Shown piece by piece: positions 4,562 through 63,254 of a DNA stretch of 64,000 bases. The translations under genes were made by a program, and so were the position numbers. This stretch comes from an uncultured Acidobacteriota bacterium (lineage in GTDB: Bacteria > Acidobacteriota > Vicinamibacteria > Vicinamibacterales > 2-12-FULL-66-21), in contig CAWHNN010000022.1 of assembly GCA_963830815.1 (NCBI GenBank), forward strand, positions 25,753 to 89,752, in the 5' to 3' direction. Every line of letters begins with the position of its first letter. The first letter of the stretch is position 1. A model generated the notes under the pieces. It had not been told where the DNA came from. It was given only the letters and a program-made list of their open reading frames with translations, and ran no database searches.

Positions 4562-4962
4562 GCGAAGGCCTCCCGAACGCGCTCCGGCATCCGGCACGGA
4601 CGTCCGCTTTGATCGACCGACGCATGCGTTGTCCGGCCCGTTGCCGCGACCGTCGCGTCGGTGGTCAGACGAACCTCGTAGTTGAATTCCATTCTCACCG
4701 GCGAAAGCATCCGGCCCGTCGTCCGGATCTCGATCTCGTCGTCATACCGCGCCGGGCGCGCATACTCGCAGTGCGCCTCGATGACCGGCAGCGACACGCC
4801 TGACAGTTCCATTTCCCTGTAGCTCCAGCCGAGCGTCCGCAAGAGGTCCGTACGAGCGACCTCGAACCAGACGAAGTAGTTGGCGTAGTAGACCACGCCC
4901 ATCTTGTCGGTCTCTGCGTAGCGGACCCGCACGCTGGAAGTCGAGGTCGGAAGACTCTTCAC
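4558..4962 (-). CDS. acyl-CoA thioesterase, YbgC/4HBT hotdog family
   Basis: Intact 134-aa ORF with [27 protein letters not shown], typical of 4HBT-type thioesterases. Confidence 0.75.
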
Positions 4963-5626
4963 GCCCGGCCCCCGGCGGCGGCGCGCAGGTCGCGGAGCGC
5001 GCGCGCAGGATCGGCCTGACCGAAGATAGACGTGCCAGCGACGAGGATCTCCACCCCTGCTGCGACCACGGCGGCGGCGTTCGACTGCTCGATGCCGCCG
5101 TCAATGGCCACCACGGCGCGCGATGCCTGCTTGTCCAATAACTCACGCACCGCTCGGACTTTAGACTCGCTGCGCGGGATAAAGGTCTGGCCGCCGAACC
5201 CCGGATTGACCGACATGACCAGCACGTAGTCGAGATCGGCGGCGATGTCCTCGAGCGCGCGCGACGGGCGTCGCCGGATTGATCGCGACGCCTGCCTTGG
5301 CGCCCAGCTTCTGGATGAGGTGCACGCGTGCGGTGCAAATGGGGCAGGACCTCGAGGTGTACGGCGATGCTGTTGGCACCAGCCTCGACGAACGCCTCGA
5401 GATAGCGATCCGGCGCCTCGATCATCAGGTGCACGTCGAGCGGCAGACTGGTGACCTTGCGGACGGCCTTGACGACCAGCGGGCCAAAGGTGATGTTGGG
5501 CACGAAGTGCCCGTCCATGACGTCGAGGTGCAGCAAATCCGCGCCGCCGCGCTCGACCTTGCCGATGTCCTCGGCGAGATGGGCGAAGTCGGCTGATATC
5601 AGCGAAGGCGCGATCCGCACGCTCAA
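4959..5626 (-). CDS. rpe: ribulose-phosphate 3-epimerase; reading frame interrupted twice as assembled
   Basis: The protein is spread over three frames. The N-terminus is [17 protein letters not shown]...HLMIE (TTG start at 5626). The middle is [20 protein letters not shown] (ORF 5161..5379). The C-terminus is [19 protein letters not shown]...AIDGGI (frame ending at 4959). Confidence 0.85.
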
Positions 5627-6345
5627 CGGCTGACCTCAATCGAGATCGGTTCGCCGGGTGCGATCTGAAAGCCCGCCTGCGGGCTCTGCCGAAGGACGAC
5701 TCCTCCAGGAACTCCGGGATAGGGGTGATCGCCGACCACAGACACGCGGAATCCGCGGGCACGAAGGAGGTCGGAGGCACGGTCGCCGTTGACGCCGATG
5801 AGGTCCGGCATGACGTAGGTCGCGCCGCGCTCGCCGCGATTTACGAGCAGCGAAATCGTGTCCGACTTGCTCTTGGCTGGCGGATCCTGAGCGACCACGG
5901 TCCCCGTCGTGTAGTCGAGCGAGCGAATTTCGGCTGTCGTTCCCGTGGCGAATCCCTCTTGTGTCACTCGCAATTGCGCTGTCCGCTCCGATTCGCCGAC
6001 GAGCCCCGGAACGATGGTCGAGCGCGGTCCGGCGCTGATCCACACCCTGACGCTCCGCTGACGCCTCGTGCGCAAACCCGCTTGCGGATCCTGCACGAGG
6101 ACCTGTCCCGCCGCCACCTTCGGATCGACTTTGCGCCCGTCTTCGACCTTGAGCGTCAAGCCCGACTCCGCGAGGGCCGCTGACGCATCATTGACCGTCT
6201 TGCCGGCGAGGTCGGGCACGACCACTTCGCGAGTCTTCAGCGCCATTCGCATGGAGGCGGCGGCAAACACGACATAGGTCAGCAGCAGCGCGCCGCACAG
6301 GAAGAGCACCTTGCCGGCTCCCCACACGCGCGTCCTCAGTGGCAT
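5623..6345 (-). CDS. membrane-anchored protein with three PASTA domains and no kinase or PBP domain
   Basis: Intact 240-aa ORF. N-terminal TM helix ([18 protein letters not shown]), then three repeats of about 65 aa of the form VPDLxGktxxxAxxxLxxxGLxxxV..., the PASTA pattern. Confidence 0.75.
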
Positions 6346-6374: not shown

Positions 6375-7725
6375 TTAATCGGCCTTACGGAGAATGGCGC
6401 CGAAGAAGGCCTCGAGGCCGTCCCGGAAAGGGAATGTGCGCAGGTGCCCGGCGGTATTGACGAGAGGCTGCATCTGGGGCGGCAGGTCCACCGGCGCAAC
6501 CGGCCTGAAGGCCCCGCCCGACACGAACTTCGCCACCACGTCCTCGTTTTCTTCTGGTTCGCTCGAGCACGTCGAGTAAACAAGCGTCCCGCCGGGGCGC
6601 AGCACCGTAGCGGTCTCGGCAAGCAACTGCTGCTGGGCCGCGGCCAGCCGGGGGAGATCGCTCTCCGATCGCCGCCACTTGACGTCGGGATCCCGCCGCA
6701 GGGTCCCCAGGCCGGAACAGGGAACGTCGAGGAGGATCCAGTCGAACGCGGGGGTCAAAGGCAGCGCCGAGGCATCAGCCTGAACGATGCGGATCGACTT
6801 TGCGCCGGACTGCCGGACCGTGCGCGCGAGTAGATCGACGCGACGGCCGCGGACGTCGGTCGCGACGATGAGTCCGCTGTCGTTCATGGCGGCGGCAATG
6901 GCCGTGGTCTTGCCTCCCGGCGACGCGCATGCGTCGAGCACTCGCTGCCCGCTCCTGGCGCCGACCAGGCAGGCGACGAGTTGCGACGCTTCGTCCTGCA
7001 CCAGAAAGTCCCCGCTGTCAGCGATCGGCGTCAGAAGCGGGTTGCCGCTCCAGACGACGAGCGCGTCAGGCGCAAAGCGGCCGCGCGCGACGCTCACGCC
7101 GTGTCCGGCCAGCAATGCGGTAAGGCTGTCCACGTCGCCGCGCAGACGATTGGCTCGCAGCGTGAGGGCTGCCGGCTTGTTGTTGAACTGAAGCCACGCC
7201 TCCGTCGCTTCGAAGCCATATCTGTCGAGCCATCGCGCCGCCAGCCATCTGGGATGCGACAAGGCGACAGACAAGTAATCGAGCTGCGCGTCCCGGCCGG
7301 CCGCGGGATCGGGCCGAGGTGGCAGGGGCAGTTGCTCGCGCTCACGCGCGACTCGCCGCAGCAGGGCGTTGACGAAAGGGGCCGCGCTCTTCTTGCCGGC
7401 CTTCTTCGTCAGGGTGACGGCGTCGTTCACGACGGCCGAAGCCGGTACACGATCCAGATGGAGCAGCTGAAAGATCCCGCTGCGGAGGATGTCCCGAACT
7501 TCCGAATCGAGTTTCGCGACCGGGCGCCTGCCGAACGCCGCGATCACATGATCGAAGGCACCCTGCCAGCGAATCGTTCCGGTCGACGATCTCGCCGGTC
7601 AGGGCGCGATCGCGGTCGTCTGACAGGCGCGACCGCACGCGGGCGAGCGCGTGGGGCAGATCGGCAGTATCGGACGTGATCGCCTGCAGCGCCTCGAAAG
7701 CGGCGGCGCGGGCCGGCGCGATCAT
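6375..7725 (-). CDS. rsmB: 16S rRNA (cytosine967-C5)-methyltransferase RsmB/Sun; one frame interruption near 7550-7590
   Basis: The NusB-like N-terminus (MIAPARAAAFEALQAI...) is in one frame. The body is in another and carries the DACASPGGKT SAM motif and LDVPCSGLGTLRRDPD. ATGA overlap with the fmt stop at 7725..7722. Confidence 0.85.
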
Positions 7726-8706
7726 CCGCGTTCGATCCTGATGCCTGGCGGGACGTGCCTGCCAGCGAGAAACTCGCGCGCGGACATCGCGCGGCGCCCC
7801 TCCGGCTGAATCACCTTGATCCTGAGCACGTGTCCGTCGCCGGCGACGACTTCGAATCGATCGGGCTCCGCTCGCACGATCGTTCCCGGGCGGTCGGGGC
7901 TGACAGCCGGCGTCAGCTCGGTGCGGTGCAGCAGCACCCGCGTTCCCGCAATGCGGCCGGAGACGAGCGGCCACGGCTGCAGGCCGCGAACGAGGTTGTG
8001 GATGCGCTCGGCCGGAAGGCCCCAGTCGACTGCACCCTCCGCCTTGGTGATTTTCGCCGCGTAGGTGACGAGCGATTCGTCCTGCGGCGTCTCCTTTGCC
8101 TTTCCCGCCGCCATCTCGTCGAGGACTTCGACCAGAACGTCGGCGCCCATCTCGGCGAGATCGCGCTCGACCTCAACGCTCGTATCGTCCGGCCCGATCA
8201 CGCGCTTGACCGCCTTGAACGCGGCCCCGGCGTCGAGCTCCTTGACGACCCGCATGATGGTGACGCCAGTGATGTCGTCGCCGGCGATGACCGCACGGTG
8301 GACCGGAGCCGCACCACGCCAGCGCGGCAACAGCGACGCGTGGACGTTGATCATGCCCAGTCGCGGAATCTGCAGCAGCGATTCTGGCAGCAGCTTGCCG
8401 TAGGCAGCCACGACGCCGACGTCGGGCGCCAAGGACGTCATCCGCTCGCATGAAGGCCTCTTCCCGCAGGCGCTCCGGCTGCAACACCTCGATCGAATGC
8501 GCAAGGGCGAGAGCCTTTGTCGGCGTCGCGGCAAGGTGGTGGCCGCGCCCTTTGGGCCGGTCCGGCTGCGACACGACAGCGACGACGCGATGGGGAAGCG
8601 GCCTGGCAGGGTCGAGCTCGATGAGGCGGCGCAGAGTCGGCACCGCGAAGTCAGGCGTGCCGAAGTACACGATCCGCAACGGCTGGGTGGTCACGTCGTT
8701 CACCAT
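7722..8706 (-). CDS. fmt: methionyl-tRNA formyltransferase; one frame interruption near 8440-8460
   Basis: N-terminus LRIVYFGTPDFAVPTLRRL...SQPDRPKGRG and body INVHASLLPRWRGAAPVHRAVIAGD lie in two frames. Confidence 0.9.
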
Positions 8707-9210
8707 CGGCCGGAGCGCTTCATCTTCTGGATCTTCCGCACGATGAGATCGCGCTTGATGCCGCGCAGGCGATCGATGAAAACGACGCCATCGAGATGAT
8801 CCATCTCGTGCTGGAAGGCCCGCGCGAGAAGGCCCGTGCCTTCGGCGGTGCAATCGGCGCCGTCGCGATCGAGTCCCTTGAGCACCGCGCGCGCCGGGCG
8901 AACGACCGTCGCGTTGAAGCCGGGCACGCTCAAGCACCCTTCTTCCTCGAGCTGCATGCCTTCGCGCGTCGACAAACGTCGGGTTCACCATCGTGATGAG
9001 CGCGGTCCGATCGCGGCCGACGCTGGTGTCGACGACGAAGACGCGCAGCGGCACGCCGATCTGCGTCGCAGCGAGGCCGATGCCCGGCGCCGCGTACATC
9101 GTTTCGATCATGTCGTCGATCAGGCGGTGCAGATCGTCGTCGAAGACCGTGACGTCGGCGGCGGGTTGGTGGAGCGGCCGTTCTCCATAACGGAGGATTG
9201 GCCGAATCAT
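8700..9210 (-). CDS. def: peptide deformylase; one frame interruption near 8970
   Basis: GIGLAATQIGV (motif 1) is in the frame starting at 9210. EGCLSVPG and QHEMDHLDG (motifs 2 and 3) are in ORF 8700..8975. Confidence 0.9.
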
Positions 9211-9237
9211 CGAGCCTGGAATTGGGCGCGAACAGCC

Positions 9238-10422
9238 TCAGACGACTGCCGCGACCGCGCGCTCGATGTCGGCCACGGCGTCGCCGCCGAAGCGATCGAC
9301 GAGCGCATCGGCGAGGATGAGCGCGACCATCGCTTCCCCGACGACCGCAGCTGCCGTGACCGCGCAGACGTCGCTCCGCTCAATCGCCGCCGGCGACTCC
9401 GTCATCGTCGTCAGATCGACAGAGCGTAGAGGCTTCATGAGGGTCGAGATCGGCTTCATCCAGGCGGACACTCGAAGATCTTCGCCGTTGGTGACGCCGC
9501 CCTCGAGGCCGCCGGCGTTGTTCGTCGGCCGCGCAACGCTCATCGGCATGAGCTCCGGACGCGTCCGGTACGATTTCGTCGTGGACGCGCGAACCAGGGC
9601 GGACGGCAACTTCTGGCCCGAGTCCAATGCCGACAGCCTTGATTGCGGGAATAGACATCAGCGCCTGCGCGAGTCTGCCGTCGAGCTTCCGGTCCCACTG
9701 CACGTAGCTCCCGAGGCCGACGGGAAGCCCGTGAACGATCACTTCGAAAGCGCCCCCCATCGTGTCGCCAGCTTCTTTCGCGCGATCGATGGCGGCGATC
9801 ATTGCTGTTCGATTTCCGGATCGACGCAGCGCAGCGGGCTGTCGTCTGGCAGCGCCGCGGCTCGCTCGAACGGAACGACCGTCCCCGCCGGGAGCGCGGA
9901 TTCCCCGAGAACGAAGACATGGCTGGTGACGCTGGCACCGACGCGGGCCAGCAACTGCTTGGCGATCGCGCCAGCGGCGACGCGGGCGGCCGTCTCGCGG
10001 GCGCTCGCGCGCTCCAGGATGTCGCGCACATCAGCGCGGCCGTACTTGGCGATCCCGGCGAGGTCGGCGTGGCCAGGCCGCGGCCTGGTGACGGGTGCCC
10101 GTCGCGCGCCGCCGCCTTCCATCGCCGGTTCGCCCTCGACATCGGCGCCGACACGCATCGTGTACTGCCAGTTCGGCCAGTCGCGATTCTCGATCATCAT
10201 CGCGATCGGCCCGCCGATGGTTTCGCCCGTCCGCACGCCCGAGAGGATGTCCGCGCGATCCGACTCGATGGCCATGCGCCGGCCCCGGCCATAGCCGCCC
10301 TGCCGCCGGCGGAGGTCGCGTGTGATGGCATCGAGATCGAGCGCGAGCCCGGCAGGAATGCCTTCGAGAATCACGACGAGCGCGCGCCCGTGTGACTCGC
10401 CAGCTGTGAGAAATCGCACCAT
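9238..10422 (-). CDS. aroC: chorismate synthase; two frame interruptions (about 9800 and about 9600)
   Basis: [12 protein letters not shown]...RPGHADL, then [21 protein letters not shown]...PAIKAVGIG, then [16 protein letters not shown]...ERSDVCAV, in three frames. The junction at 9802..9799 reads CAA TGA / ATG ATC. Confidence 0.9.
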
Positions 10423-10534
10423 TCGTCGGTCGATTGTATCTTAAGTTTCTGCGCCGTCTCGGGCGCGACTCCGTCGATCTTCGAGCAAAACTGCGGGCGT
10501 TCTGTGCGGTGACGCTCTTGCACTTCGATCGGCA

Positions 10535-12480
10535 ATGCCCGAACTCCTCGCGGATCGCTTCATGCCCTTTGGCCGTGCGTGGGTAGACATCGCAACCGGC
10601 GCGCCGGCTCACCTGGTCTTCACGGCGGCGGGAGAGGCCTCGAGACAGATGATCTGGGACGATCAGTGCGCCGAGCGCTCGCGCCTGCGTCATCCGCTCC
10701 TCAATCCGCTCATCGACTACGGCGCGCTCGATAACGACCGGCTGTTCGAGGCCTATGCCGCTGGCGACACGGTCGCGCTCACGGCCGGTCTGGCCAGTCG
10801 GGCGCTCAGGCACGTCACACGCTTTCTCGAGTCGCGAGGTCTGCCGCTGTCGGCGGAACGATCGCGCGTGGCGCTTCGCGATATCTCGGGCGTTGTACGT
10901 GCGTCGGTCGAGCCCGACCGTACCGCCCGGCGCAAGTCGCGGTTGCGTGGGCCGACGCTGGGGATTGTCCTGCAGCCGCGTGTAATCCTCGATGCCTTGC
11001 GTGAGGCGCTCGACGGCGCCGGCCCGGGCGGCACGACCAGCCTGGAGATCTCCGGCGGCCGCGGCGCCGGTCTTCGCACAGCGCAATTGATGTCCGCTCG
11101 CATCGTCAGGCTCGCGGGTTTCGTTCCGGTTGCGAGCACGTCGATCGTGCGGCTGCCGTCGCTGCGCGACACGCTTCACAGACGGCACGTCTGCGTGTTC
11201 CTCGAAAATCACGACGCGGCCGAGCGCTGCGACGCTCGCTGCATTCCTGGCGTCGCTTGGCGTCGCCAGCTCGCGGCGGCACGTCCTGCTGCGGTTCAGC
11301 AGGAGCGAGGCCGTGCCGCGGGGCGCTCAGCCGCTTGATCGGACTGGGGATAACAGCCATGACTGCGATGGTGTTCACGGGCGAAGACGGCCCCTCCTAC
11401 GACGAGTTGTTCGATGCAGCGCGAGGAGCCGGAGGCCGTCCGGGCCTGTTTCTCGAGCGGCTGCGCGCAACACAGGTCGATCATCCGGCCGGGCGTACAC
11501 TGTCGTGCACGAGTCGGCGCCTGCCTACGTTCTCGATCCGCCGGCGCGCCCGGATCGCCACGACGTCAACCGGGTGCTGCGCGACGCGACTGAACGTGGC
11601 GCCCGGCTGGCAGCGCGCGGGCGTCACGCCGCCGCGATCCGCTTGCTGTCGAGGGCGTCGCGCGTACTGGAGGCTCGGGAGGAGCTTACGCTCGCGGCCT
11701 CCTGCGCAGAGGCGCTGGCCTGGATACTTCGCGGAAGAGGACATAGCGAGCTCGCCCTCGAGCAGTTCGAACGCGTGGAGACGTTGTTGCACCGCCTTCA
11801 GGGCGATCGGAGCGTGCAGCGGCCGAATAAAGAGGCGACAGCGCTGCAGGCCGTCATTGGCCGCGGTATCGTCTGGACCGATCAGTATCGGTTTCATCAA
11901 GCCGAGGCTGCGCTGCGCGCGGCGGTCGTATCCGCGAACGTCCTGCAGTCTCCAGGTCTGGCCGATCGCGCCTGCCTTGCTTTGGCGCGCTGCCTTTATT
12001 GGCAGGGTCGTCATGACGAGGCGGCGACACTATTGCGCGCCACGTTCGCAGATCGACAACCGGAAGAAGCGGCCGTCGAGGCGTGGGCGCTGATGTCCCG
12101 CGCTGCAGGCGGCGGGCAGCGATCTGCGCGCCGCGCTGCTGGCGGCGAACCGAGCGCTCGAGCACCTGAGCAGCGTGCGAGCCCCGCGCGTCGTCGTGCA
12201 GGTCCTCCGCACCATGGCCGTGGTCCAGCGCTGCGCGGGTGACGCCAGTCAGCAACGCCTGTGGAGCGAACGCGCTCTCCAGGCCGCGACCGATGCCCGG
12301 TTGCCGCTCGCCGCGCTGCGCGCGCGCGGACTGTTCGTCGAGGCGAGCATCGGCAGCAGCGATCCGCGGCTGGCACGCTGGCTGGCACACCTTCGAGCCG
12401 CGCTGGCCAGACGTCCGCTGCCGGAAACCGTCAGGCGCGAGATACAGGGCGTGTGCCAAGCTCGTTCGCGCGCGCCGGCC
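10535..12480 (+). CDS. large hypothetical regulatory protein (degenerate P-loop/STAND-like region plus TPR-like helices). It may be the N-terminal extension of the downstream sigma-54 activator. Several frame interruptions.
   Basis: Sense-looking segments are spread over three + frames (ORFs 10535.., 11130.., 11257.., 12175..). Examples: ISGGRGAGLRTAQLMSARIV, VCVFLENHD, and TPR-like AAIRLLSRASRVLEAREELTLAASCAEALAWIL. The boundaries and the one-gene versus two-gene call are uncertain. Confidence 0.4.
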
Positions 12481-12491
12481 GCAGATGCGGC

Positions 12492-13885
12492 ATGTTCTCC
12501 GAGCGCGCTCTTCGAGAGCTGGAGAAGCTGCTGGAGCTCGCCCAATCGGCTTCGTCCGATACCGAGGCGGCCGACGCCGTGTGTCGATTCGTCCTCGAGC
12601 GCTCGCGCGCGATAGGGGTGCAAATCGTTGCCCCATCGGGGCGCCGCGGGTTGTCGCGCGGGCAGGACGGCCGTGGTCATGCGAACCGATGACGCTGTCC
12701 CGTGCCACAGCAGCACGCCGGGTTGTCGGCGCGGCAGGGGATTGTTTCCACGACGACCATCTCGCAGCCGAAGCCGTGCGCTGGGCCGACGAAGCAGTCG
12801 CGGTGTTGTGCTGCCGCTGGGCGCTCGACGCCGGCATCGATCGCGCGAATGCGTCGGCATTGGTTCGCGCCGCGGCGCTCGTCGTTGCGCCCTCCGTACG
12901 CGGCATACTCGACACTCCCACCCTCGTCGCGACGGACGCGGCGTTCACCGACCTTATCGGCGCGAGCGAGGGCGCGACAGCGCTCCTTACGTCGATCCAC
13001 CGCGCGGCGCGAGCGCCGTATCCGGTGCTCATCGAGGGTGAGAGCGGCAGCGGCAAGGAGCTCGTTGCGAGGGGCATCCACCGGCTTGGCACGCGTCGCG
13101 ATCGGCGGCTGTGCACCCTCAATTGCGCTGCGCTGTCGGACGAACTGCTCGAAGCCGAGCTCTTTGGGCACGCGCGCGGTGCCTTCACTGGCGCAGTGGC
13201 TGAGCGCCCGGGGCTTTTCGAGGAAGCGGATGGCGGCACCATCTTTCTCGACGAAGTAGGAGAGCTGTCGGGTCGGGCCCAGGCGAAGCTGCTGCGCGTC
13301 CTGCAGGATGGCGAGGTGCGGCGTGTGGGCGAGAACCTGCCGCGACGAGTGGACGCGCGAATTGTGGCCGCAACCAATCGCCGGCTCGAAGAGGAGGTCG
13401 CGGGCAATCGGTTTCGGGCGGACCTGCGCTTTCGGCTCGACGTCATACGAATTGTCGTCCCGCCGTTGCGCGAACGCGCGACTGACATCCCGGCGCTCGC
13501 GGCCCGCTTCTGGGCTGACGCCGCGAACCGTGTCGGGACAACGGCCGTGTTGTCGACCGAGGCAGTGGCGGCGTTGGCCCGATACGACTGGCCGGGGAAC
13601 ATCCGCGAGCTGCAGAACGTGATCGCATCGCTCGCCGTGCACTCGCCACGCCGGGGCCGCATCCTGCCATCGCTCCTGCCCGCACACATCGCCAGATACG
13701 GCGCGAGCTGCGCAACCACGTTCGAGACGGCCAGGCAAGAGTTCGAGCGCCGGTTTGTACGGGCCGCGCTCGCGGGCGCCGGCGGGAAGCGCGCACGCGC
13801 CGCTCGAGCGCTCGGAGTTTCTCGCCAGGGCCTTGCCAAGATGCTCCGGCGGCTGCGGATCGATGACCAATGTCGATCGGCGTGA
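12492..13885 (+). CDS. sigma-54-dependent transcriptional activator (GAF-like sensor, AAA+ domain, Fis-type HTH); at least one frame interruption near 12640-12700
   Basis: Walker A GESGSGKE, the sigma-54 contact loop GAFTGA, Walker B TIFLDEVGEL, WPGNIRELQN, and a C-terminal HTH (RAARALGVSRQGLAKMLRRL). Confidence 0.85.
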
Positions 13886-15708: not shown

Positions 15709-17084
15709 CTATCGGATTCTCGCGCGCAGGTTGCGCGCGCCGACGTTCTCCGGATGCTTCTCGAGCAGCTTGTCGAGGATTATCTTTGCCGCATCTGGCT
15801 GGCCGGCGCGCCAGCGTGCGGCCGCGAGCTTGACGAGGAACGTTTCGTCACCTGAAAGCTGCGGCGCGGCGCGTTCGTAGTAGGTGGCGGCGACGGGGAA
15901 GTCCTCGACGCGCATCGACAGATCGGCGACGCGGATCGACAGATTGGCCCGGCGGCGGGCGTCGCTATCTTCGCCGGCGAGCGCGCTGTAGTCGATGAGC
16001 GCCTGCCGGGCGACGTCGTAGTGGGCGCGCCGTTCGGCGGCGTCAGCCAGGTAGTAGAACGCGAGCGGATCTGCGGGCAGCTTCCGGGTCGCCTGCTGCA
16101 GCATCCGTTCGGCCGAATCCGCATCGGCCGCGAGCAGGAGCGCGCGGCCATAGAGCAGGCACGCCTCGCTCGAGCTGTCGTCGTCTACTGCCTTCTCGAG
16201 CGCTTCGAGCGCCTTGTTCAGGTCGAAACGATCCGAGCGCGCCTGCGCCGACTCGAGCCACACCCGCCCGAGCGCGAGAAAAATACTGCGGTCGTGCGGA
16301 TATCGCTCGGAGGCGTGACGCAGCAGCACGACGGCGCGATCCGCCTGCCCGGCCTTGGAGTACGCCAGGCCAAGCGCAACGTCGCGGGCCGGCCCCGGCT
16401 CGAGAGCGCCGAGCGCCTCGAGTTGATTGACCCATTCAGCCGTTCGGCCAAGCCGCCCATACAGGTCGGCGAGCTCTTCGCGCGCGCGCGTCAGGCCGGG
16501 CGCGAGTGCGATTGCGCGTTGCAGGGACGTGACCGCCTCTGCCGGCTGCTGCGCGTCACGCTGGCACAGGGCCAGCAGATAGTGCGCCTCGGCGAAGTTG
16601 TCGTCGATGGCGAGTGCCTTCTGGAGCGCCTCCATGCCCAGCGTCGGCTGCCCGGCCCGGTAGCGCGCAAGAGCAAGTTTGTAGAGAACGCGCGGCGAAC
16701 GATCGTCGAGGTCCACGTACGCCTGATAGTGCTCGGCGGCCGGCATGTAGCGGTGCCGCGCCGAGTTGACGTCTCCAAGGAGCTCGCGGGGCCGCGGCGC
16801 GCCCGGGTCGAGCTGCGCCGCCTGGCGCAGGTCGCGAAGGGCCGCTTCCAGTTCGTCGCGACGGCGATAGGCGTCGCCGCGCATCAGGTACCCGATCATC
16901 GAGTCGCTTTTGAGCGCGATGGCGCCGCTGAACGCCTCGATGGCCGTGGACAGGTCTCCGGCTGCCATGGCGGCGTCGCCACTGCGTATCAGGTCGCGAT
17001 GACGGGCTTCCGGTCCGTGACGACGTAGCCATAGACGGCGGCCATCCCGACGAGCACGATCAGGCCGGCCAGAAGGCGCTTCAC
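15709..17084 (-). CDS. membrane-anchored TPR-repeat protein; probable frame interruption near 16990
   Basis: The 419-aa ORF 15709..16968 is all TPR-like repeats. Upstream, in another frame, a GTG at 17084 (AGGA 8 nt upstream) encodes a TM helix, KRLLAGLIVLVGMAAVYGYVV. It joins DLIRSGDAAMAAGDL if one indel is allowed. Confidence 0.65.
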
Positions 17085-26148: not shown

Positions 26149-26703
<555 letters not shown>

Positions 26704-26707
<4 letters not shown>

Positions 26708-32774: not shown

Positions 32775-32777
32775 CAC

Positions 32778-37399: not shown

Positions 37400-37406
37400 G
37401 TTCGCG

Positions 37407-40629: not shown

Positions 40630-40636
40630 CCGCTCG

Positions 40637-43603: not shown

Positions 43604-43627
43604 TCACCCGGCGTTGGAGGCGCACCG

Positions 43628-45765: not shown

Positions 45766-45832
45766 ATGCTGAATGCTGAATGAATTTGAGGTCAGCCTTA
45801 CATTCAGCATTCAACATTCAGCATTCAGAATT
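45751..45832. repeat. imperfect palindrome built from GAATGCT / AGCATTC heptamers (copy 2 of 2), at a convergent gene junction
   Basis: AATGCTGAAGTCTGAATGCTGAATGCTGAATGAAT - 16-nt loop - ATTCAGCATTCAACATTCAGCATTCAGAATT. The stop codons of both convergent genes (45763..45765 on the plus strand, 45827..45825 on the minus strand) lie within the arms. Confidence 0.8.
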
Positions 45833-48221: not shown

Positions 48222-48282
48222 CGATGCCTCGTCTTTCTATGCCGAAGGGGTGTTGCTGGCTCGCGCTACGATCCGCTGCGGG

Positions 48283-51088: not shown

Positions 51089-52735
51089 ATGCTCTCGGTC
51101 ACGATCAACGGAACACACGTCGAGATCCCCCCGGGGACGTCCATGTTCGACGCCGCCAGTCAGGCCGGTGTCCGTGTGCCGACGTCGTGCGTCGCCCAGG
51201 GCAAATGCAAGGAGTGCATCGTCGAGGTGACACGCGGCGCAGAGCTTCTGAACGCGCGGACGGAGTGCGAGCAACACCTCACGGGAGCCTTCAGGCTGTC
51301 CTGTCAATGCCGGCCGACGACGGAGTCGGGCGCCATCGACTGTCACACGATGCGCCGGGGCCACATGCGCATCGAACGCCACGCGCTCAATCTACCCGCA
51401 AGCCAGACGCGTCTCCCGCTCGATCCGCCCGTTATCCGCGACGGCTCGCGCATCGTCGATCGTGTCACTGGCACTGTCCTGGCGGAGTCTGACGGCCCGA
51501 TTCATGGGCTCGCCATGGACATTGGAACGACGACGGTCGTCATACGGCTGCTCAATCTCGAGACGGGCGAGCTCGTTGCCGATGCCTCGTTGGAGAATCC
51601 GCAGCGCTTTGGCGGCTCCGACGTGATGTCCCGCATTCACTACGACACTGAGCACCGCGGCAAGCTGCTACGGCGAACACTCGCGGGCTACCTCACGCAC
51701 GCGATCGAGGAGTTTCCCGTCGATCCAGCGACCATCTACGAGGCCGTCGTCGTCGGCAACGCCACGATGCGCGATCTGTTCTTCCGGCAGAGCGTGTATT
51801 CAATCGGCCAGAATCCGTATCGATCCATCACCGAGATCGAGATGGCAGCAGGAACGCGCGCGACGACGAGCCTGACGGAAACTGGTCGCCGCTGCCTCCT
51901 GCCGATTCATCCCCGCGCGCGCGTCTATGGACTGCCGGTGATCAGCGGCCACGTCGGCGCCGATGCTGCCGCGTGCATGCTCGCGGTCGGGCTCGCTGAC
52001 GAAGAGCGGCTCGTCGCCATCATGGACATCGGAACAAACACCGAGCTCATCCTCGGAAACAGGCACCGCATCGTTGCTGCGTCCTGCCCGGCGGGTCCCG
52101 CGTTCGAGGGCGGAGCGATCGCCTGTGGCATGCCCGGCCTCGAAGGCGCGATTGAGGATGTCCGGCTGAACGATCGCGGCGGCTTCGATTGCGGCGTGAT
52201 CGGCGGTGGCCGCGCAGAAGGCATCTGCGGCTCGGGCCTCGTCGATCTCATGAGCGAGCTGCTTCGCGCCGGGCACATGAACGCGATGGGGCGATTCGAC
52301 GACGGCGTGTCGCGCATGACGATCGATGCCGCGAACGATATCTATTTCCTCGAGAGCGACGTCAACGAGCTGGCGCAGGCCAAGGGCGCCAACGTCGCCG
52401 GCCTGCACGTCGTCTTCAGCAGCTTTGGTATCTCCTTTGATGCCGTCGATGTGTTCTATCTCGCGGGCGGCTTCGGACGGCACTTGAAGAAGGAAGCATC
52501 GCGGCGTATCGGCCTGATCCCCAACCTGCCCGACGGCAAGATCGTGCAGGTGGGCAACGCGGCCATCGAAGGCGCGTGTATCGCGCTTCTGTCGCTGGAG
52601 CAGCGGGCGGTCATCGAATCGCTCGTGCGCAAAGTCGAACACTGCCGCCTCGAAACGCATCCCGACTTCTTCGACTTCTTCGTTGACGGGTGTCAGTTCA
52701 AGCTCGTGGAGTCGAGCGATTCGGTACCGCGATGA
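51089..52735 (+). CDS. reductive activator of corrinoid proteins (RACo-type: 2Fe-2S ferredoxin domain plus ASKHA ATPase domain)
   Basis: Intact 548-aa ORF. N-terminal plant-type ferredoxin cysteines (SCVAQGKCKECIVEV...LSCQC), then ASKHA motifs (GLAMDIGTTTVV, IMDIGTNTELIL, CPAGPAFEGG, ICGSGLVDL). Confidence 0.85.
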   Translation: MLSVTINGTHVEIPPGTSMFDAASQAGVRVPTSCVAQGKCKECIVEVTRGAELLNARTECEQHLTGAFRLSCQCRPTTESGAIDCHTMRRGHMRIERHALNLPASQTRLPLDPPVIRDGSRIVDRVTGTVLAESDGPIHGLAMDIGTTTVVIRLLNLETGELVADASLENPQRFGGSDVMSRIHYDTEHRGKLLRRTLAGYLTHAIEEFPVDPATIYEAVVVGNATMRDLFFRQSVYSIGQNPYRSITEIEMAAGTRATTSLTETGRRCLLPIHPRARVYGLPVISGHVGADAAACMLAVGLADEERLVAIMDIGTNTELILGNRHRIVAASCPAGPAFEGGAIACGMPGLEGAIEDVRLNDRGGFDCGVIGGGRAEGICGSGLVDLMSELLRAGHMNAMGRFDDGVSRMTIDAANDIYFLESDVNELAQAKGANVAGLHVVFSSFGISFDAVDVFYLAGGFGRHLKKEASRRIGLIPNLPDGKIVQVGNAAIEGACIALLSLEQRAVIESLVRKVEHCRLETHPDFFDFFVDGCQFKLVESSDSVPR

Positions 52736-54000
52736 TCGAGATCATCGACACGTCCCCGGATATCGACGTCGCTGCTGTCGAATACAAGCGGCTGCTGGGA
52801 TACCCGCGCGACTCGGTCGTCAGCGATCGGGCGCAGGAATTGATGGATTTGGCGCGCGGGTGGTACCGAACGCACGGACGTCCGTGGGTACAGGCACGGC
52901 AGGCCGACGGCCTGGAACTGTCTGGCAATGCCGTGACGATCGATGGCGTGCCTTTCTCCAGTCCCCGGCTGTCGCAAACGCTCAGGAACGCGACCGCCGA
53001 CAGCGCCATCGTCGTCGCCGTGAGCGCCGGACCCGAGCTCGAGGCCGAGGCGCAGCAGCTGTGGCGCGACGGTAAGCCCGACGAGTACTTCTTCCTCGAA
53101 GTGTATGGCTCGGCGGTCGTCGAGCATCTGGTGACGATGACCGGGGCGCGGCTGTGCGCGTGGGCGGAGTCGAGGCACATGGCCGTGCTGCCGCACTACA
53201 GTCCTGGCTACCCGGAGTGGTCGATTGAAGAGCAGCCGCGGCTCCTGGATCTGATCAATCGGCTGCAGCCGGCAATGCCGGCACCTGTCGAAGTGATGGA
53301 TTCGGGGATGCTGCGCCCGAAGAAGTCGCTGCTCGCAGTGTTCGGGATCACGAGACACGTCGACCGCGTGCAGCGGCTGACCGCTCTCACCCCGTGCGAG
53401 AACTGTTCGTACTTGCCGTGTCAGTATCGGCGCGCGCCGTACCGGCGGGCACCGCTGCCAGCGAACCCCGAGTTGTCGGCGCTCTCACGGGAAACAAGCG
53501 TTGAAGCGGCGAGGCCGAGGCCGGCGCTGCACCGGCTACAACTCTCGACCATGGCCACTACACCGTGAACCTCAAGGCCCTGCAGCGGTGGAGCGAGGAG
53601 CGTCTGTCGCTTTCCCGGCGCGCCGACGGCGGCGTCGACGCCACGTTCCGCTACGAAGGGACGACGTGCACGAACATGGGCAGGGCACTGAAGTTCGACT
53701 ACCGGGTGACGCTTGGTCCGCCGCAGGACGGCTATCCGATCAGGGAGCAGCGGTGCGCGCCTGCCGAAGGCGACACCGGGTACACCTACATGTGCCGTTA
53801 CCTGAGCAACCGTGAGCAACTGCTCGTGGCGATCGATCGACGAGCAGCCGTTGAACGGCAAGCCGCTGAACGACGTGCTCGGGTGGACGCGGGCGGCGAG
53901 CGGCGCCGGCTGCTACTGCGAGCCGGAGAGCCGGCAGCACAAGTGGGGCCTGGTGCTCGAAACCATTCATTTCGCGCTGGCGCGGGAAGGCGGAGACTAG
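52732..54000 (+). CDS. methionine synthase activation (AdoMet-binding, Met_synt_B12-like) domain protein with a Cys-rich C-terminal extension; probably two frame interruptions (about 53540 and about 53830)
   Basis: ATGA overlap with the RACo stop. EYFFLEVYGSAVVEHL...LPHYSPGYPEWSIEEQPRLLDLI resembles the MetH reactivation domain. The extension reads HYTVNLKALQRW...TCTNMGRAL...YMCRYL, then GAGCYCEPESRQHKWGLVLETIHFAL. Confidence 0.65.
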
Positions 54001-54943
54001 GTGGAGGCGCAGAAACAACGGTTGCAGGACAAAGTCAGGGAGCGGCCTCTGCTCGGCGACGGCGCCATGGGCACGCAGTTGATGATTGCCGGCCTCGAGC
54101 AGGGCAATTGCGGCGAGGCATGGAACCTGACTCACCCCGAGCGCGTGCTGGCCATCCAGCGGCGCTACGCCGAAGCCGGCTCGGACTGCATCATCACGAA
54201 CACGTTCGGCGGGTCGCGCATCATGCTCAATCGGCATGGTCATGCCGGCGACGTCGCCGCGGTCAATCGTGCCGGTGTCGAGATCGCGCGCGAGGCGTTC
54301 GACGGCCGCGAAGGGTGGGTGCTCGGCGACATCGGTCCCTTCGGCGGACTGATGGAGCCATACGGCGACTTCACCGAGGACCAGGTACGACGGGCGTTCG
54401 CCGAGCAGGCCGAGGCGCTCGTTGGCGCCGGGGCCGACGCGCTCATCATCGAGACCCAGACATCGCTCGAGGAATTGCAGCTCGCCATCGAAGCGGCGCG
54501 GAATGCCGGCGCACCATGCGTCATCGGCTCGATGGCCTACGACGTCACGCTCGACGGTTCGACGTTCCGCACGATGATGGGCATCGATCCGGAACGCGCG
54601 GCCGACGTTCATGGGCGAACACGGCGCCGACATCGTGGCGCTCAACTGCGGCACGGGCATGGATATGGAGCGCGCGCGGCAGGCCGTGCGGCGCTATAAG
54701 GACACCACCGGCTTGCCGGTGATGGCGCAGCCAAACGCGGGTCAGCCCAAGCTCGTGGCGATGAAAGTCGTGTACGACGAAACACCAGAGCAGATGGTGT
54801 GCGGCGTCGTCCCTCTCCTCGAAGCCGGAGTCGACATCGTCGGCGCGTGTTGCGGGAGCACTCCCGAACATATCCGGGCGTTTCGCAACGCCATGGACCA
54901 CTACCTGGCCGGGCGGGCGAGCCGGCAGGAACTTTCACGATAG
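54001..54943 (+). CDS. homocysteine S-methyltransferase domain protein (MetH N-terminal module-like); one frame interruption near 54600
   Basis: GTG immediately after the upstream TAG. LLGDGAMGTQL, DCIITNTFGGS, ADALIIETQTSLEE, then ADIVALNCG...VGACCGSTPEHI (zinc-binding Cys motifs). Confidence 0.85.
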
Positions 54944-55391: not shown

Positions 55392-56908
55392 ATGATTCGG
55401 TCTGCTGTGAGCCCAACGGTGGCGCTCGCCACTTCGCCTGTCGCCGAGATCGAGACAGATCTCCTTGTAATCCCGTTCGTCGAAGGCGAACAGCTCCTGC
55501 AGGCAATTCCAGGCCTCGCTGAGGCGACGGGGGGCGCGATCGAGCGCGCGCTCGCTTCGAAAGAAGTCCAGGGAAAGCCCTACGAGCTATTTCTGACGCC
55601 TGTCCTGAAGGGCTGGAAGGCGACGCGCGTGGCGCTCATCGGCGCCGGACCCGCCGCTGGCGCGAACCTCGAACGTCTGCGCCGGCTGGCGACCACCGCG
55701 GCGCTGGCGGCACGCCAGCGTCACGTCGCGCGAATCGCGTTCGTGCAGCGCCTGCCTCTCGATCCCTTCGAAGGTGTACAGGCCGTCACCGAAGGGTTGA
55801 CCCTCGCGGCGTTCAGCGGCGATCGCTACAAGAGTCAGGATCGAAGCGGCGCGGCGCCGGAACAGATGCTCGTAGTTGCCACGGCGGCGCAAGCCTCTGC
55901 GGCGACGCTCGAGAAGGCTGTCGAACGCGGCCGCATCCTCGGCGAGTCGTCGAACATGGCGCGCGATCTCTGCAACGAGCCGGCGAATGTCTTGACGCCG
56001 TCTGTGTTTGCCGAGCGCGGCGCGGCCATCGCGCGCGAGGCCGGACTCGAGGTCGAAGTTCTCGACGAAGACGAGATCGAACGGCTGAGCATGGGGCTGC
56101 TGCTCGGTGTCGCCCGCGGCAGCGCCGAACCGCCGCGCGTGATTGTCATGACGCACAATCCGCCTGGCGCGCCTGCCTCTCCCGTCCTCGGACTCGTGGG
56201 CAAGGGCATCACGTTCGACACCGGCGGCATCTCCATCAAGCCCGCGGAGGGCATGGAGCGGATGAAGGACGACATGGCGGGCGGCGCAGCAGTCATCGGC
56301 GCCATGCGCGCCATCTCGCTGCTGAAAGCGCCAATCAAAGTCGTCGGCATCGTTCCGGCCTCCGAGAACATGCCGGGGGACGCGCGACCAAGCCTGGCGA
56401 CGTCCTGACTGGCGCCGGCGGTAAGACCGTCGAGGTGCTCAACACCGACGCCGAGGGCCGGCTGATTCTCGGTGACGGCCTCTGGTACGCCCAGCGCCTC
56501 GGAGCGACGCACCTGATCGATGTCGCAACGCTGACCGGCGCCTGCGTCGTCGCGCTCGGCAAGGTCGCGTCGGGACTTTTCGGCGAGCCGCAGTCCTGGG
56601 TGGCGAGCGTGTCGCAGGCGGCCGCCCGTGCCGGCGACCGCGCCTGGCCGATGCCGCTCTACGACGAGTACTTCGAGCAGATGCGCAGCGAAATCGCCGA
56701 CATGGTCAACACCGGCGGACGCGCCGCTGGCGCCTGCACCGCGGCGAGCTTCCTCAAGGAATTTGCCGGCGGCCTGCCGTGGGCGCATCTCGACATCGCC
56801 GGCACGGCCTGGGCGGACGAGACCAAGCCCTGGCAGCCAAAGGGGCCGACGGGTGTCGCGGTGCGCACGCTGGCGGAGTTGGCCTTCACCAGCGGAGAGT
56901 GGAAGTAA
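55392..56908 (+). CDS. pepA: leucyl aminopeptidase (M17); one frame interruption near 56385
   Basis: VGKGITFDTGGISIKP, DDMAGGAAV, then in the next frame NTDAEGRLILGDGLWYA...HLDIAGTAW. TATAAT at 55375..55380 lies just upstream. Confidence 0.9.
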
Positions 56909-57229: not shown

Positions 57230-59174
57230 CTACTCCTCACGCGACGCGATCGTCGCCCTCGCCTTCAGCGATTTCTGATACTTCAAGATGGCATCGAGCA
57301 GCGCTTCAGCGATCTGCTGGCGATAGGCTGACGTCTTGAGCAGGGCGCCTTCCTGCTTGTGGCTGACAAACGAGATCTCGGCGAGCACGCTGGGCATGCC
57401 GGCGCCGATCAGCACCACGAAGGGCGCCTGTTTGACGCCGCGGTCCTGCAGCTCGCCGTTCTTGCTCGACAGGCTGCGCACCATCGACTTCTGCACCGTG
57501 TCGGCAAAATCCCTCGACTCGTCGATCTTGTTGTTCAACGTAATCGCGCGCACGATGTCGGGCAGCCGGTGCATCGTCTGGCCGGAGGCTGAGTTCTCGC
57601 GCGCGGCGACGGCTTCGGCTTCCGGGTTGGCGGCGAAGTTCAGGAAGTAGGTCTCGATACCGCGTGCCTTGATGTTGCGGCTGGCGTTGGCGTGAATCGA
57701 CAGGAAGAGGTCAGCGCCCTCACGGTTGGCAATCGCCGTGCGCTGCTCGAGCGGAATGAAGACGTCGGTGTCGCGCGTCATCACGACTTCCATGCCTGGC
57801 TGCTTCTCGAGCAGCTTCTGCAGGCGCTGCGACACGTCGAGCACGAGCTCGGATTCGTTGATGCCGTTGCCGCGGACGCCCGGATCGTGCCCGCCGTGAC
57901 CGGGGTCGATGACGATGCGATTGATTCCGAGACCGAGCTGCCGCGCCAGCGAGAACTGCCCATTGGAGTTTGCCAGCGGCACCGTTGGCGCCGGCGGACT
58001 GGGCGGAACGACTGAACGAGAAGGCAGCGGCGCGAGCGGCGAAGATGTCGCCACGACTGGCGCTTTCGGCGCCGGCGGCAGCGGCTTTGGTGGAACCGGC
58101 TTCGACTCGGCCCGCATCTTGTTCAGGCTGACGCCCGCAACCACCTTCGGCGCGTTGAGCGGCAGCGGCGGTGGCGGCGGAGAGGTCAGCGGTGCCATCA
58201 CAACCGCCTCGGCGACGGGAACCGGTGGCGGCAGGGGAGTCACTGCGACTTTAGGACGCGCGGGCGGCATTGCCGGCGGAGCCGCTGGCGCAGGCGGCGC
58301 GGCAGCAGGCGGCGGGGCGGTCGTTGCCGCTGACGCGTTGATCGTCGTCTTGCGGCGAAAATCGACGACGACCCGATACGGGTTGTAGAGCGTGAATACG
58401 CTGTAGGTGTCGACGCCCTCCAGATCCATCACGACGCGAGTGGTGTTCTGCGGCTGGCGGCCAAGCCTGATCTCCTTGACCATGTCGTCATTGAAGTTGA
58501 GGTTCTTGGCACGCAGCCCGGGAGACAGATAGGCGCCGCGCAGATCGAAGAAGAGCCGCTTCGGGTTGTCGAGGCGCTCCTGCCGGAAGAGCACTTCGCG
58601 GTCCATCTCGATCGAGACCCGGATGCCGTCGGGCATCGCCGTGCCGATTGATCGCTCGCACCGTCACGACGCCGTTGGGAACCGTTTCAGAGGTCTCAGC
58701 CCTTGCCGTGGTCGTGACGGGCCGCGGCGATGAGCTCGTCGGGCGCACGACGCCGCTGCCGCTTCCCGTGGTTGCCATCGCCTTCGTCGTCTCGAAGGTC
58801 GCGAGCGCCTGGTCGACACCGGAGATCAGCGAGCTGGCCGGGTAGCCGGCCTGCAGCTGCCTGAGCAGCCGAACGCCGGTTCGCTTGTCGCTTTCTTCAC
58901 CGAAGCGATCCCAGGCGAGGCGTGATAGTTCGCTTGCCTGCCACAGGGCGTTGTCGGCGTAGCCACTCGCTGGGTATTTGTGCACGACCCGCTCGTAGGC
59001 TGCGACGGCAGCACGAATCTGGCGCAGGGTCGCCGATTGTCGCGCGTCACGTACGCTGCGATCGCGGGCGAGCGCCTGGGTATAGAGCTGTCGTGGCGGC
59101 TGTGCCGCGGCAATGGAGCCGCAGCCCAGAACCAGACCAACGGCGAGGATGGTTGCTCGAGCGTTGAACGTCAT
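57230..59174 (-). CDS. N-acetylmuramoyl-L-alanine amidase (TPR/YbgF-like N-terminal region, AMIN domain, Pro-rich linker, Amidase_3 domain); one frame interruption near 58640
   Basis: The 468-aa ORF has an AMIN-like start (GIRVSIEMDREVLFRQERLDNPKRLFFDL), a Pro/Ala-rich linker, and IVIDPGHGGHDPG...HANA (Amidase_3). The upstream ORF 58488..59174 supplies the signal peptide and a helical repeat region, and runs into the same gene. Confidence 0.8.
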
Positions 59175-59177
59175 AAA

Positions 59178-61625: not shown

Positions 61626-61626
61626 G

Positions 61627-63254
61627 TCAGATCTCCATGATCACCGGCACGACGAGCGGCCGGAGTCCTGAACGCTTGCGGAAGAACCGCTGCAAGTCCA
61701 CTCGAATCTTCTCCTTGATGAGACCCGGATCGGTCCGTTCTTCGACCCCGGCTCCCTCGATCGATGCCGCAAGCAGGGAAGGGATCTCCTTCAGCAGCCC
61801 CTCGGTGCGGGCATCGAGCACGAACCCACGCGTAATCACGTCCGGTGTTTCCTCCAGGGTGCCCGACTGACGCCCGATGACGACCACCGGCACGACCAGC
61901 CCGTCTCCTGCCAGATGCCGGCGATCTCTCAGGACCTCGTCGCCGACCTCGCCGCTCCGCGTTCCGTCGATGAGGATGCGCCCCGCCGGGACCTTGCCCG
62001 CCAGCCGCCCTCCGATCTCATCGAACCGGACGACGTCGCCGTTCTCGGCGAGGATGACCTTCGTGCCCCTGGACACGCGGCCGGCGATCCTCGCGTGCCG
62101 GGCAAGCTGGCGGTACTCCCCGTGTATCGGCACGAAGTAGCGCGGTCTGACCAGGGAGATCATTAATTTCAGTTCTTCCTCGCTCCCGTGTCCAGAAACG
62201 TGGACATGTTTGAGGCCTTCATAGATGAGCTCGGAGCCGCGCTTGGCGATGTGGTTCATCACCCGGCCAATCGCCTTCTCGTTGCCCGGAATCTCACGCG
62301 CCGAGAAAACGACCACATCTTCAGGGTCCAGCCGGACATGGCGGTGATCGTTGATGGCAATCCGGGGAGTGCCGCCTGCGGCTCGCCCTGCGACCCCGTG
62401 CACATGCAGACGACGTCCTGCGCGGGGAAATTGCGCACGTCGCTGTCCTTGATCAGGACGCCCGCCGGCACGCGGAGATACCCCAGCCGTTGAGCAATCT
62501 CGGAGTTGTCGATCATGCCGCGGCCGATGAACGCCACGCGGCGATCGAACTGGGCCGCCAGATCGACGACGATCTGCATGCGGTAGATGCTGGAGGCGAA
62601 TGTCGCCACGACGATCTTGCCGTCGGCGTTCGTGAAGATCTCTTCGAACGCGTCGGTGACGTCGACTTCCGACCCCGTGAAGCCGCGGCGATCGACGTTC
62701 GTGCTGTCGGCGAGGAGCGCGAGGACACCGGAAGCGCCGAGTTGCGCCAGCCGGTGGACGTCGACGCCCTCGCCGTCGATCGGCGTCTGGTCGATCTTGA
62801 AGTCGCCGGTGTGGATGATGACGCCCTGCGGCGTCTCTACAGCGACCGCGACACAGTCCGGGATGCTGTGCGTGACTCGCAGGAACTCGATCGTGAACGA
62901 GCCGACGGTGACACGCTCTCGCGGACGAACGGTCGTGAGCCGTCCGCGCGACTCGTGATCGTTCTCCGCAAGCTTCGACTCGACGAGCGCAAGCGTGAGG
63001 GCCGTGCCGTAGACGGGCCCCTGGAAAACCTTGAGGACGTGCGGCACGGCGCCGATGTGGTCCTCGTGCCCATGCGTCAGGATCAGGGCGGCGATGTTGT
63101 ACTGCTGCAGCTGGCGCAGGTCCGGGATGATGAGGTCGACCCCGAGCAGCTCGGGCTCGGGAAACATCACGCCAGCATCGATGAGGATGGCAGTGTCGCC
63201 GCAGGCGACAACCATCATGTTCATGCCGAACTCGCCCAGGCCCCCGAGAGGCAC
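61627..63254 (-). CDS. rnj: ribonuclease J; one frame interruption near 62370
   Basis: PLGGLGEFGMN, the metallo-beta-lactamase motif LTHGHEDHIGA, and the beta-CASP region. The C-terminal ORF of 258 aa contains HVSGHGSEEELKLMISLVRPRYFVPIHGEYR. Confidence 0.9.

Follow-up and report, generated by a model that had tools for sequence, protein, structure and literature searches.

Introduction

Pseudogene-rich genomes, such as those of Mycobacterium leprae and of recently host-restricted symbionts, carry many frameshifted genes, biosynthetic operons included. In such real decay the lesions are common to related genomes and biased towards deletions, nonsense mutations accumulate, constraint on the genes is relaxed and essential genes are spared. 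Conserved genes can also be split by errors of long-read assembly, for which truncated-protein tests have reportedly been devised. Here we examine a stretch of 64,000 nucleotides (positions 25,753 to 89,752 of contig CAWHNN010000022.1, assembly GCA_963830815.1; hereafter the window) from an uncultured Acidobacteriota bacterium of the Vicinamibacterales, in which recognisable genes are repeatedly interrupted by shifts of reading frame. It resembles the pseudogene-rich genomes in the number and kind of genes broken, but none of the five traits of real decay listed above holds in it, and we show below that the interruptions are very probably consensus errors of a long-read metagenome assembly and not mutations, so that the genes of the organism itself would be intact.

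The closest described counterpart is the indel error of Nanopore-only and other long-read assemblies, as detected by IDEEL-type tests: there, as in the window, 1-base indels split conserved genes in an assembly-specific manner; the errors described there are also worse at low depth and absent from short-read assemblies of the same taxa (PMC9262707). The window departs from the classic Nanopore error, which is associated with homopolymers and prone to deletion, as about 78% of its insertions lie outside homopolymers, insertions exceed deletions 3:1 and, in many insertions, the extra base repeats the other allele of an adjacent single-nucleotide polymorphism (SNP). It may also be like the strain-collapsed contigs produced by Flye --meta, which are mixtures of closely related strains (PMC8302730). 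The strain-collapse literature stresses mosaic SNP consensus and fragmentation, and it is from sequence comparison that we infer here the conversion of a SNP into a 1-nt insertion.

Results

Frameshifts are numerous and unevenly spread

Frameshifts were counted by a frameshift-tolerant protein-to-DNA alignment, written for this analysis, in which 53 genes were compared with intact orthologues from relatives. The count covers positions 1-62.7 kb of the window, and calls that were due to errors in the references (in the SGL gene and at 48537 in fge) were taken out. Two apparent private deletions in the multiple sequence alignment (MSA), at 55880 and 60276, were reclassified as shared states and are likewise not counted. 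The references were selected by coding potential and supplemented with manually specified intact orthologues. Taking the longest open reading frame (ORF) among the relatives was dropped, as it drew in the noisy relative L089 or off-frame ORFs of high GC and gave false frameshifts. A majority consensus of the relatives alone was also dropped, because greedy ORF picking missed genes and because some errors common to the relatives L085 and L086 win the vote (at 60276 in ftsK, 57766 in amiC and 62466 in rnj). A codon-usage frame plot and a seven-state Viterbi frame caller gave many frame switches and, being too noisy for placing or counting in a genome of 66% GC, were replaced by comparison with relatives.

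We found 131 frameshifts in 34 of the 53 genes. The original prediction, made from the sequence alone, had put the number of frame-hopping genes at more than 35, which is slightly high, although it was right that many genes are broken. Several of its individual examples could be traced to single bases. In tyrA, base 32808 is a C, and one base must be skipped at 32800-32808 for the Rossmann motif to appear, giving MFHKIAIVGFGLIGGS. The TGA codon at 28143-28145 that splits a conserved motif of trpC is due to a private inserted base at 28140, and the junction described in aroC holds CAATGATC with a private 1-nt deletion at 9803/9804. The eight genes proposed to need three or more frames (rpe, trpG, trpB, the DAHP synthase, AACS and IlvD/Edd genes, GH43 and GH67) all carry multiple shifts, and the essential single-copy genes def, fmt, aroC and rnj are indeed broken (Table 1).

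The spread of the frameshifts is far from random. In 2-kb bins it is over-dispersed (chi-square 135.6, df 30, p = 2e-15; variance/mean 4.5), in agreement with the strikingly uneven distribution noted at the outset, and each of the five intervals that had been called uninterrupted (1016-4962, 13957-15671, 17199-22929, 50818-52735 and 59178-61625) contains none. In the dense zone, by contrast, the median spacing is 131 nt, 30 gaps are shorter than 100 nt and the indel density is 0.48%. A step predicted near 23 kb is sharp, whereas the second, predicted near 49 kb, lies at about 50.8 kb. The GC content is 64-69% throughout the window, which encodes housekeeping, aromatic amino-acid and xylan-use functions, and Rfam and tRNA scans of the window found no RNA genes. 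Since the nearest relatives for 30-41 kb are only about 80% identical, individual indels in that stretch are placed to within a few bases, and a small number of events may have gone undetected or been given the wrong polarity; the calls in trpF and in the FAA-hydrolase gene are the least certain, the polarity in trpF because the relative L081 is broken at the same place.

The indels are private to each assembly

Fourteen loci, drawn from 10 other assemblies of the same or sister populations, were compared with the window, and an indel was taken as private if it was in one sequence and absent from all others in MAFFT block alignments of the window and its relatives. Six sister-species relatives (L001-L006) were found by scanning contigs, one genome per species, with the uninterrupted portion of a URO-D-like protein (39.6-40.5 kb). 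They belong to syntenic Acidobacteriota metagenome-assembled genomes (MAGs), 80-82% identical in nucleotide sequence to the window over 29.7-51 kb, which are named as Microflora Danica MAGs ('MFDxxxxx.bin...') and have Flye-style 'contig_N' names. The closest relatives (L081-L089), found by protein searches and then contig look-ups, come from ENA assemblies in the range ERZ25039469-ERZ25039565, also with Flye-style contig names. Among these, contig_12589 (567 kb; loci L081, L084 and L088) spans window positions 1-31 and 41-62.7 kb at 93.7-95.3% identity; the identities of the others are 96.7% (L085), 95.3% (L086), 94.5% (L087), 91% (L089), 84% (L082) and 79% (L083).

In the window, 146 private indels have lengths that are not multiples of three (non-3n), and only three have lengths that are. 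Each of the relatives has its own set of private non-3n indels, from 1 to 77, mostly of 1 nt, at other positions and again patchily distributed. Locus L086 has 50 in 21.6 kb, of which 38 lie within 42.5-47.5 kb, and the 77 of L089 are dense at 0.5-6 and 14-17.4 kb, leaving 6-14 kb clean; the remaining counts are 37 (L082), 23 (L085), 10 (L084), 9 (L088) and 2 (L087). No frameshift of the window is common to all three same-species assemblies, and a handful coincide with a single noisy relative.

It follows that the broken genes differ between assemblies of populations that are 94-97% identical in nucleotide sequence. FtsK reads as one 815-aa ORF in the window but is broken in L085 and L086. For the trp operon, L081 and L083 have intact copies and the window and L082 split ones, and RsmB has 449 aa on four long contigs and 240-390 aa on four others. 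The comparison with sister genomes that had been proposed as a check on the original prediction thus showed indels private to each assembly, hitting different genes.

Short-read assemblies gave a further comparison. In two 90% protein clusters, those of P0121 and P0255, all short-read members (JGI, Logan) that were not cut by contig ends are full length, at 548 aa (RACo-like) or 449 aa (RsmB), whereas on long ENA contigs four of seven RsmB and five of nine RACo-like members are truncated. The truncated forms have already entered public protein collections, with lengths of 240, 295, 299 and 390 aa for RsmB and 165, 275, 387, 406 and 450 aa for the RACo-like protein; the window's own 390-aa RsmB ORF is an exact match to P0378, and its intact 548-aa RACo-like protein to P0121, and both entries are listed on a single contig of 99,542 bp in NCBI and ENA. 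At the DNA level, in a scan of JGI metagenome contigs, the best relative among the matches listed was 84% identical to the corrected TrpB.

Removal of the private indels restores conserved proteins

When the private indels were removed, long ORFs reappeared. Where close references were available, the stitched proteins of the window are full length, 92-99% identical end to end to their contig_12589 orthologues and free of internal stops, which bears out the earlier impression that the interrupted segments remain conserved at the amino-acid level. Pfam matches agree with this. The corrected indole-3-glycerol phosphate synthase (IGPS; trpC) matches its model over positions 1-254 of 254, the stitched DAHP synthase matches DAHP_synth_1 over 4-261 of 270, the tyrA product matches PDH_N over 1-150 of 154 together with PDH_C, the IlvD/Edd protein matches ILVD_EDD_N over 14-315 of 316 together with the C-terminal domain, and the AMP-binding enzyme covers its model essentially from the first position to the last.

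The substitutions show little difference between broken and intact genes. Third codon positions account for 74% of the mismatches to contig_12589 in frameshifted genes and for 79% in intact ones (p = 0.06), and at codon positions 1 and 2 the mismatch rate of the broken genes exceeds that of the intact ones by only about 0.5 percentage points. Purifying selection is thus still evident among the substitutions of the broken genes. Neutral decay that had reached 0.5% indels should have brought several-fold more substitutions than are seen, and we conclude that the broken genes are not decaying.

Many insertions carry the allele of a neighbouring polymorphic site

The private indels of the window comprise 108 insertions and 38 deletions (binomial p = 6e-9). 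In the relatives pooled there are 169 insertions and 55 deletions, and 87% are of 1 nt. Since this spectrum is common to the window and to all relatives pooled, it is a property of the data or the pipeline and not of the locus. We also examined whether the indels fall in homopolymers, as the original prediction had suggested doing. Insertions avoid identical neighbours: 23% of those in the window and 21% of those in the relatives adjoin an identical base, compared with about 50% expected for a random base at a random site. Homopolymer slippage was therefore rejected as their source. The inserted bases are G or C in 74-81% of cases, and 75 of 87 insertions (86%) abut a third codon position, where two-thirds would be expected (p = 5e-4).

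The site that flanks an insertion is polymorphic among the assemblies far more often than are phase-matched control sites. For 47 of the 101 window insertions, the added base matches exactly an allele that a relative has at the adjacent site, where the base of the window differs, compared with the 17.7 expected from phase-matched controls (p = 2e-11). The relatives' own private insertions have the same signature (46 of 146 versus 10.7 expected, p = 8e-18). It can be seen, for example, at 41789, where the window reads TCGT-CG-ACC and the relatives read TCGT-G-ACC or TCGT-C-ACC, and likewise at 45022 (GC versus G or C) and 50500 (GC versus C or G). The simplest reading of this excess is that the SNP alleles of two co-assembled strains may have been kept in tandem.

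Substitutions in the indel-dense stretches

In two of the relatives, private substitutions rise sharply in the indel-dense stretches, to 70 per kb from 3 elsewhere in L089 and to 33 per kb from 5 in L086. These stretches fit the mosaic paths expected of strain-collapsed contigs, as would be seen if the path of the contig switched into a divergent and thinly covered strain. In the window, an excess of private substitutions accompanies the indels at 7-14 kb. Over 7000-14000 the window diverges by 6-11% from all three same-species relatives, compared with 2-5% on either side, and the relatives are near-identical to one another; this part of the contig may be recombinant or derive from another source.

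Genes and repeats of the window

The segments of differing frameshift density and the affected genes are listed in Table 1.

Table 1. Segments of the window and genes with frameshifts. Positions are those of the window; +1 and -1 denote an inserted and a deleted nucleotide.
Feature	Position	Strand	Frameshifts	Remarks
Clean segment	1..4950		0	pgm, NTP-transferase, CDP-OH transferase, YfiO, epimerase, 4HBT; no private indel before 5259 in MSA with L087-L089
Moderate segment	4951..13870		15 (1.7 per coding kb)	rpe, rsmB, fmt, def, aroC, 527-aa gene, sigma-54 activator; PASTA gene intact
Nearly clean segment	13957..23172		1 in 8.7 kb coding (0.12 per kb)	17012, TPR gene; two ABC permeases, ECF sigma, anti-sigma, beta-propeller protein and S55 peptidase intact
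Dense segment	23173..41922		87 (4.8 per coding kb)	all 16 genes
Intermediate segment	41930..50812		20 (2.3 per coding kb)	GH43, GH67, NIF3, FGE-sulfatase/GCE, B12-binding; esterase intact
Sparse segment	50818..62690		8 (0.7 per coding kb)	416-aa gene, S-methyltransferase, pepA, amiC, rnj; RACo-like protein (51089-52735) and FtsK (59178-61625) intact
rpe	4951..5616	-	2	5259, 5326, both +1
rsmB	6375..7714	-	1	7584, +1; truncated ORF 390 aa, orthologues 449 aa
fmt	7711..8694	-	1	8448, +1
def	8690..9199	-	1	8970, +1
aroC	9196..10410	-	3	9246 +1, 9544 +1, 9804 -1
527-aa protein, function unassigned	10523..12106	+	4	11228, 11340, 11497, 11793
Sigma-54-dependent activator	12017..13870	+	3	12105, 12490, 12636
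TPR protein	15709..17083	-	1	17012, -1
aroD/aroE fusion (dehydroquinase + shikimate dehydrogenase)	23173..24660	+	6	
trpE	24657..26165	+	2	24914, 25059
trpG	26162..26722	+	4	26223, 26266, 26340, 26365
trpD	26722..27747	+	1	26998
trpC	27747..28589	+	8	one is inserted base 28140, creating TGA
trpF	28598..29219	+	1	near 28841, polarity uncertain
trpB	29216..30478	+	4	29384, 29658, 29986, 30458, all +1
trpA	30478..31270	+	3	30707, 31081, 31211
DAHP synthase	31612..32690	+	7	all +1
tyrA (prephenate dehydrogenase)	32779..33650	+	10	
GNAT acetyltransferase	33650..34150	+	6	
Acetoacetyl-CoA synthetase-like AMP-binding enzyme (AACS)	34232..36189	+	14	
FAA-hydrolase family gene	36185..37411	-	8	
IlvD/Edd dehydratase	37415..39387	-	9	
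URO-D-like protein	39583..40637	+	1	40483, +1
MFS transporter	40650..41922	+	3	40746, 41281, 41790
GH43	41930..43600	+	5	41969, 42393, 42676, 42938, 43515
GH67 alpha-glucuronidase	43602..45763	+	4	43721, 44236, 45023, 45207
NIF3/DUF34	45826..46695	-	3	
FGE-sulfatase/GCE protein	46699..49165	-	6	822 aa in L084
B12-binding protein	50170..50812	+	2	50422, 50501
416-aa protein, function unassigned	52732..53985	+	2	53524, 53841
S-methyltransferase	53990..54932	+	2	54002, 54604
Leucyl aminopeptidase (M17; pepA)	55410..56905	+	1	56376
AMIN + amidase_3 (AmiC-like; amiC)	57230..59177	-	2	58306, 58643
RNase J (rnj)	61627..63300	-	1	62369, -1; comparable part only up to 62690

Three further features were observed. 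A palindromic element made of tandem GAATGCT heptamers, three to four in each of two inverted arms, is present at 32695-32775, between the DAHP synthase gene and tyrA, and at 45757-45833, where GH67 and NIF3 converge. Each copy forms a long hairpin (-56 and -41 kcal/mol, z = -10 and -7). The element recurs in L002 at 2788-2870 and 16164-16243, is not matched by any Rfam family, and has the look of a REP-like or terminator-like repeat family in these Vicinamibacterales-like genomes. Between the beta-propeller and anti-sigma genes, contig_12589 has a 2.5-kb insertion with MacB/FtsX ABC-transporter genes (L081 12310-14812) that the window lacks (18577/18613), and this is a genuine difference in gene content between populations that are about 94% identical. 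Finally, the URO-D-like protein, which is encoded beside the MFS, GH43 and GH67 genes, is conserved to an unusual degree, with matches of 88-98% amino-acid identity across phyla, in MAGs of Acidobacteriota, Planctomycetota (Tepidisphaerales, Phycisphaerae, Pirellulales) and Limnocylindrales, which suggests either strong constraint or horizontal spread of this sugar-use cluster.

Discussion

Judging by the names and sources of its nearest relatives, the window most probably belongs to an assembly built solely from Nanopore reads with Flye --meta and polished once with Medaka. This is the procedure of the Microflora Danica long-read catalogue (Nanopore reads only, Flye --meta --nano-hq, one Medaka round), the authors of which describe a lower coding density in MAGs of lower coverage; short-read metagenomes are also available for that project (PMC12313526). 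A depth of about 40x is reported to be required before R10.4 assemblies are near-finished, and their indels lead to frameshifted gene calls (PMC9262707). Close strains are known to be merged by Flye into a single consensus contig (PMC8302730). The preference of the original prediction for assembly indels over pseudogenes is upheld, as all the tests agree: the indels are private, the short-read copies in two protein clusters are full length, the genes are restored on removal of the indels, there is no signature of decay and the spectrum is biased towards insertions. Three technical causes had been put forward, and one of them, a strain-mixture consensus, gains specific support from the tandem-allele signature.

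A mechanism that would account for these observations is as follows. The deposited contig would contain about 150 spurious indels in the window, nearly all of 1 nt and about three-quarters of them insertions. Co-occurring strains of a soil population of Vicinamibacterales-like Acidobacteriota would have been collapsed into one contig, and at a SNP between strains the consensus would keep both alleles side by side ('allele stacking'), giving one extra base and a shift of frame. A large share of the insertions could arise in this way and the remainder would be ordinary read errors at low depth; we infer that the alleles would become stacked through the action of the polisher. The patchiness would then reflect the number of strains and reads that support each stretch of the contig, the clean stretches presumably being well covered by one haplotype and 23-42 kb presumably being poorly covered or mixed. 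Depth, strain mixture or both, changing along the contig at about 5, 14, 23 and 51 kb, is the likely cause.

A number of points weigh against assembly error as set out here, or at least against parts of it. Coverage and strain mixture along the contig are deduced from the assembled sequence. The reference assemblies all apparently come from the same pipeline and have errors of their own, the polarity of indels rests on majority rule and on open reading frames, and 30-41 kb could be compared only with relatives of about 80% identity. The tandem-allele signature is seen in only about half of the insertions; those that lack it may be ordinary low-depth errors, or may reflect SNPs that the relatives compared do not sample. 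The third-position bias could be due in part to a preference of the basecaller for certain sequence contexts, as third positions in this genome are mostly G or C. There is no excess of private substitutions at 41-51 kb of the window despite the indels there, and the test had no same-species relative for 31-41 kb. As the indel-dense stretches of the window have no consistent excess of substitutions, a mosaic with a divergent strain does not follow for the main dense zone, and the missing excess at 41-51 kb rules out such a mosaic as the general cause of the patchiness. Lastly, three 1-nt insertions, at the window equivalents of 57766 (amiC), 60276 (ftsK) and 62466 (rnj), are common to L085 and L086, which come from different samples. 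They are absent from the window and from L084, and the FtsK of the window reads through with a conserved LTLALGK motif. Either an error that recurs at particular sequences or a true variant common to both would explain them; if they are errors, not every error is random.

The alternative that survives best also invokes assembly error, but gives strain mixture no role: plain Nanopore read errors would have survived polishing wherever reads were few. We regard this as possible, though doubtful as a complete account. The indel density of the dense zone is about that of single reads at a modal accuracy of about 99% (PMC9262707), coding density falls in lower-coverage MAGs, as described in PMC12313526, and about half of the insertions lack the tandem-allele signature. 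However, low coverage does not predict the 3:1 excess of insertions, their depletion beside identical bases (about 22% versus about 50%), their association with third codon positions, or the 2.7- to 4.3-fold excess of insertions that duplicate a neighbouring alternative allele.

Some of the interruptions might be real even if most are not. There is a very slim chance that a minority are genuine, in that one co-occurring strain is a natural auxotroph, or that the ftsK, amiC and rnj indels shared by L085 and L086 are a reproducible sequence-specific event. On the former view a strain in the soil Vicinamibacterales population may have inactivated genes for aromatic amino-acid synthesis or xylan use.

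We consider it highly improbable that the interruptions as a whole record a real, recent and massive pseudogenisation, in which the population lost def, fmt and other genes along with its capacity to make tryptophan and aromatic amino acids and to use xylan. The indels are present in the deposited sequence, their clusters in biosynthetic operons could in principle reflect auxotrophy within a community, and three frameshifts are common to two independent assemblies of a relative (L085 and L086). Against this, essential single-copy genes (def, fmt, rsmB, aroC and rnj) are hit, ten related assemblies each have a different private set in different genes, the short-read versions in two protein clusters are intact, and the broken genes have no nonsense codons and substitutions that are still constrained. 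Mutation and gene decay in bacteria are reportedly biased towards deletion, yet the bias here is towards insertion (108:38), and the tandem-allele signature has no mutational explanation. Expression of the genes in spite of the indels, through programmed ribosomal frameshifting, transcriptional slippage or RNA editing, can for practical purposes be dismissed, as it is favoured by the conservation of the stitched proteins and nothing else, and would have to contend with up to 14 shifts per gene, positions that are not conserved in relatives, 77% of insertions lying outside any repeated base, no slippery motif, and events of both +1 and -1 type.

Assembly error therefore remains the reading that we favour, and what it offers beyond this contig is methodological. 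The error spectrum departs from the textbook picture of homopolymer deletions, in that the errors are predominantly insertions, which lie outside homopolymers and beside third codon positions and often repeat the other allele of a SNP close by. This error mode, apparently a conversion of SNPs to insertions in a strain-collapsed Nanopore consensus, is of modest interest in its own right; if confirmed in reads, the spectrum could help to detect and correct errors of strain collapse in MAG catalogues made from Nanopore reads only. For the contig itself, annotation is unreliable, as fragments will be called in place of 34 of the 53 genes. The interruptions reveal nothing biologically new, and the organism's pathways for tryptophan and aromatic amino acids, together with its xylan-use and housekeeping genes, should be treated as intact.

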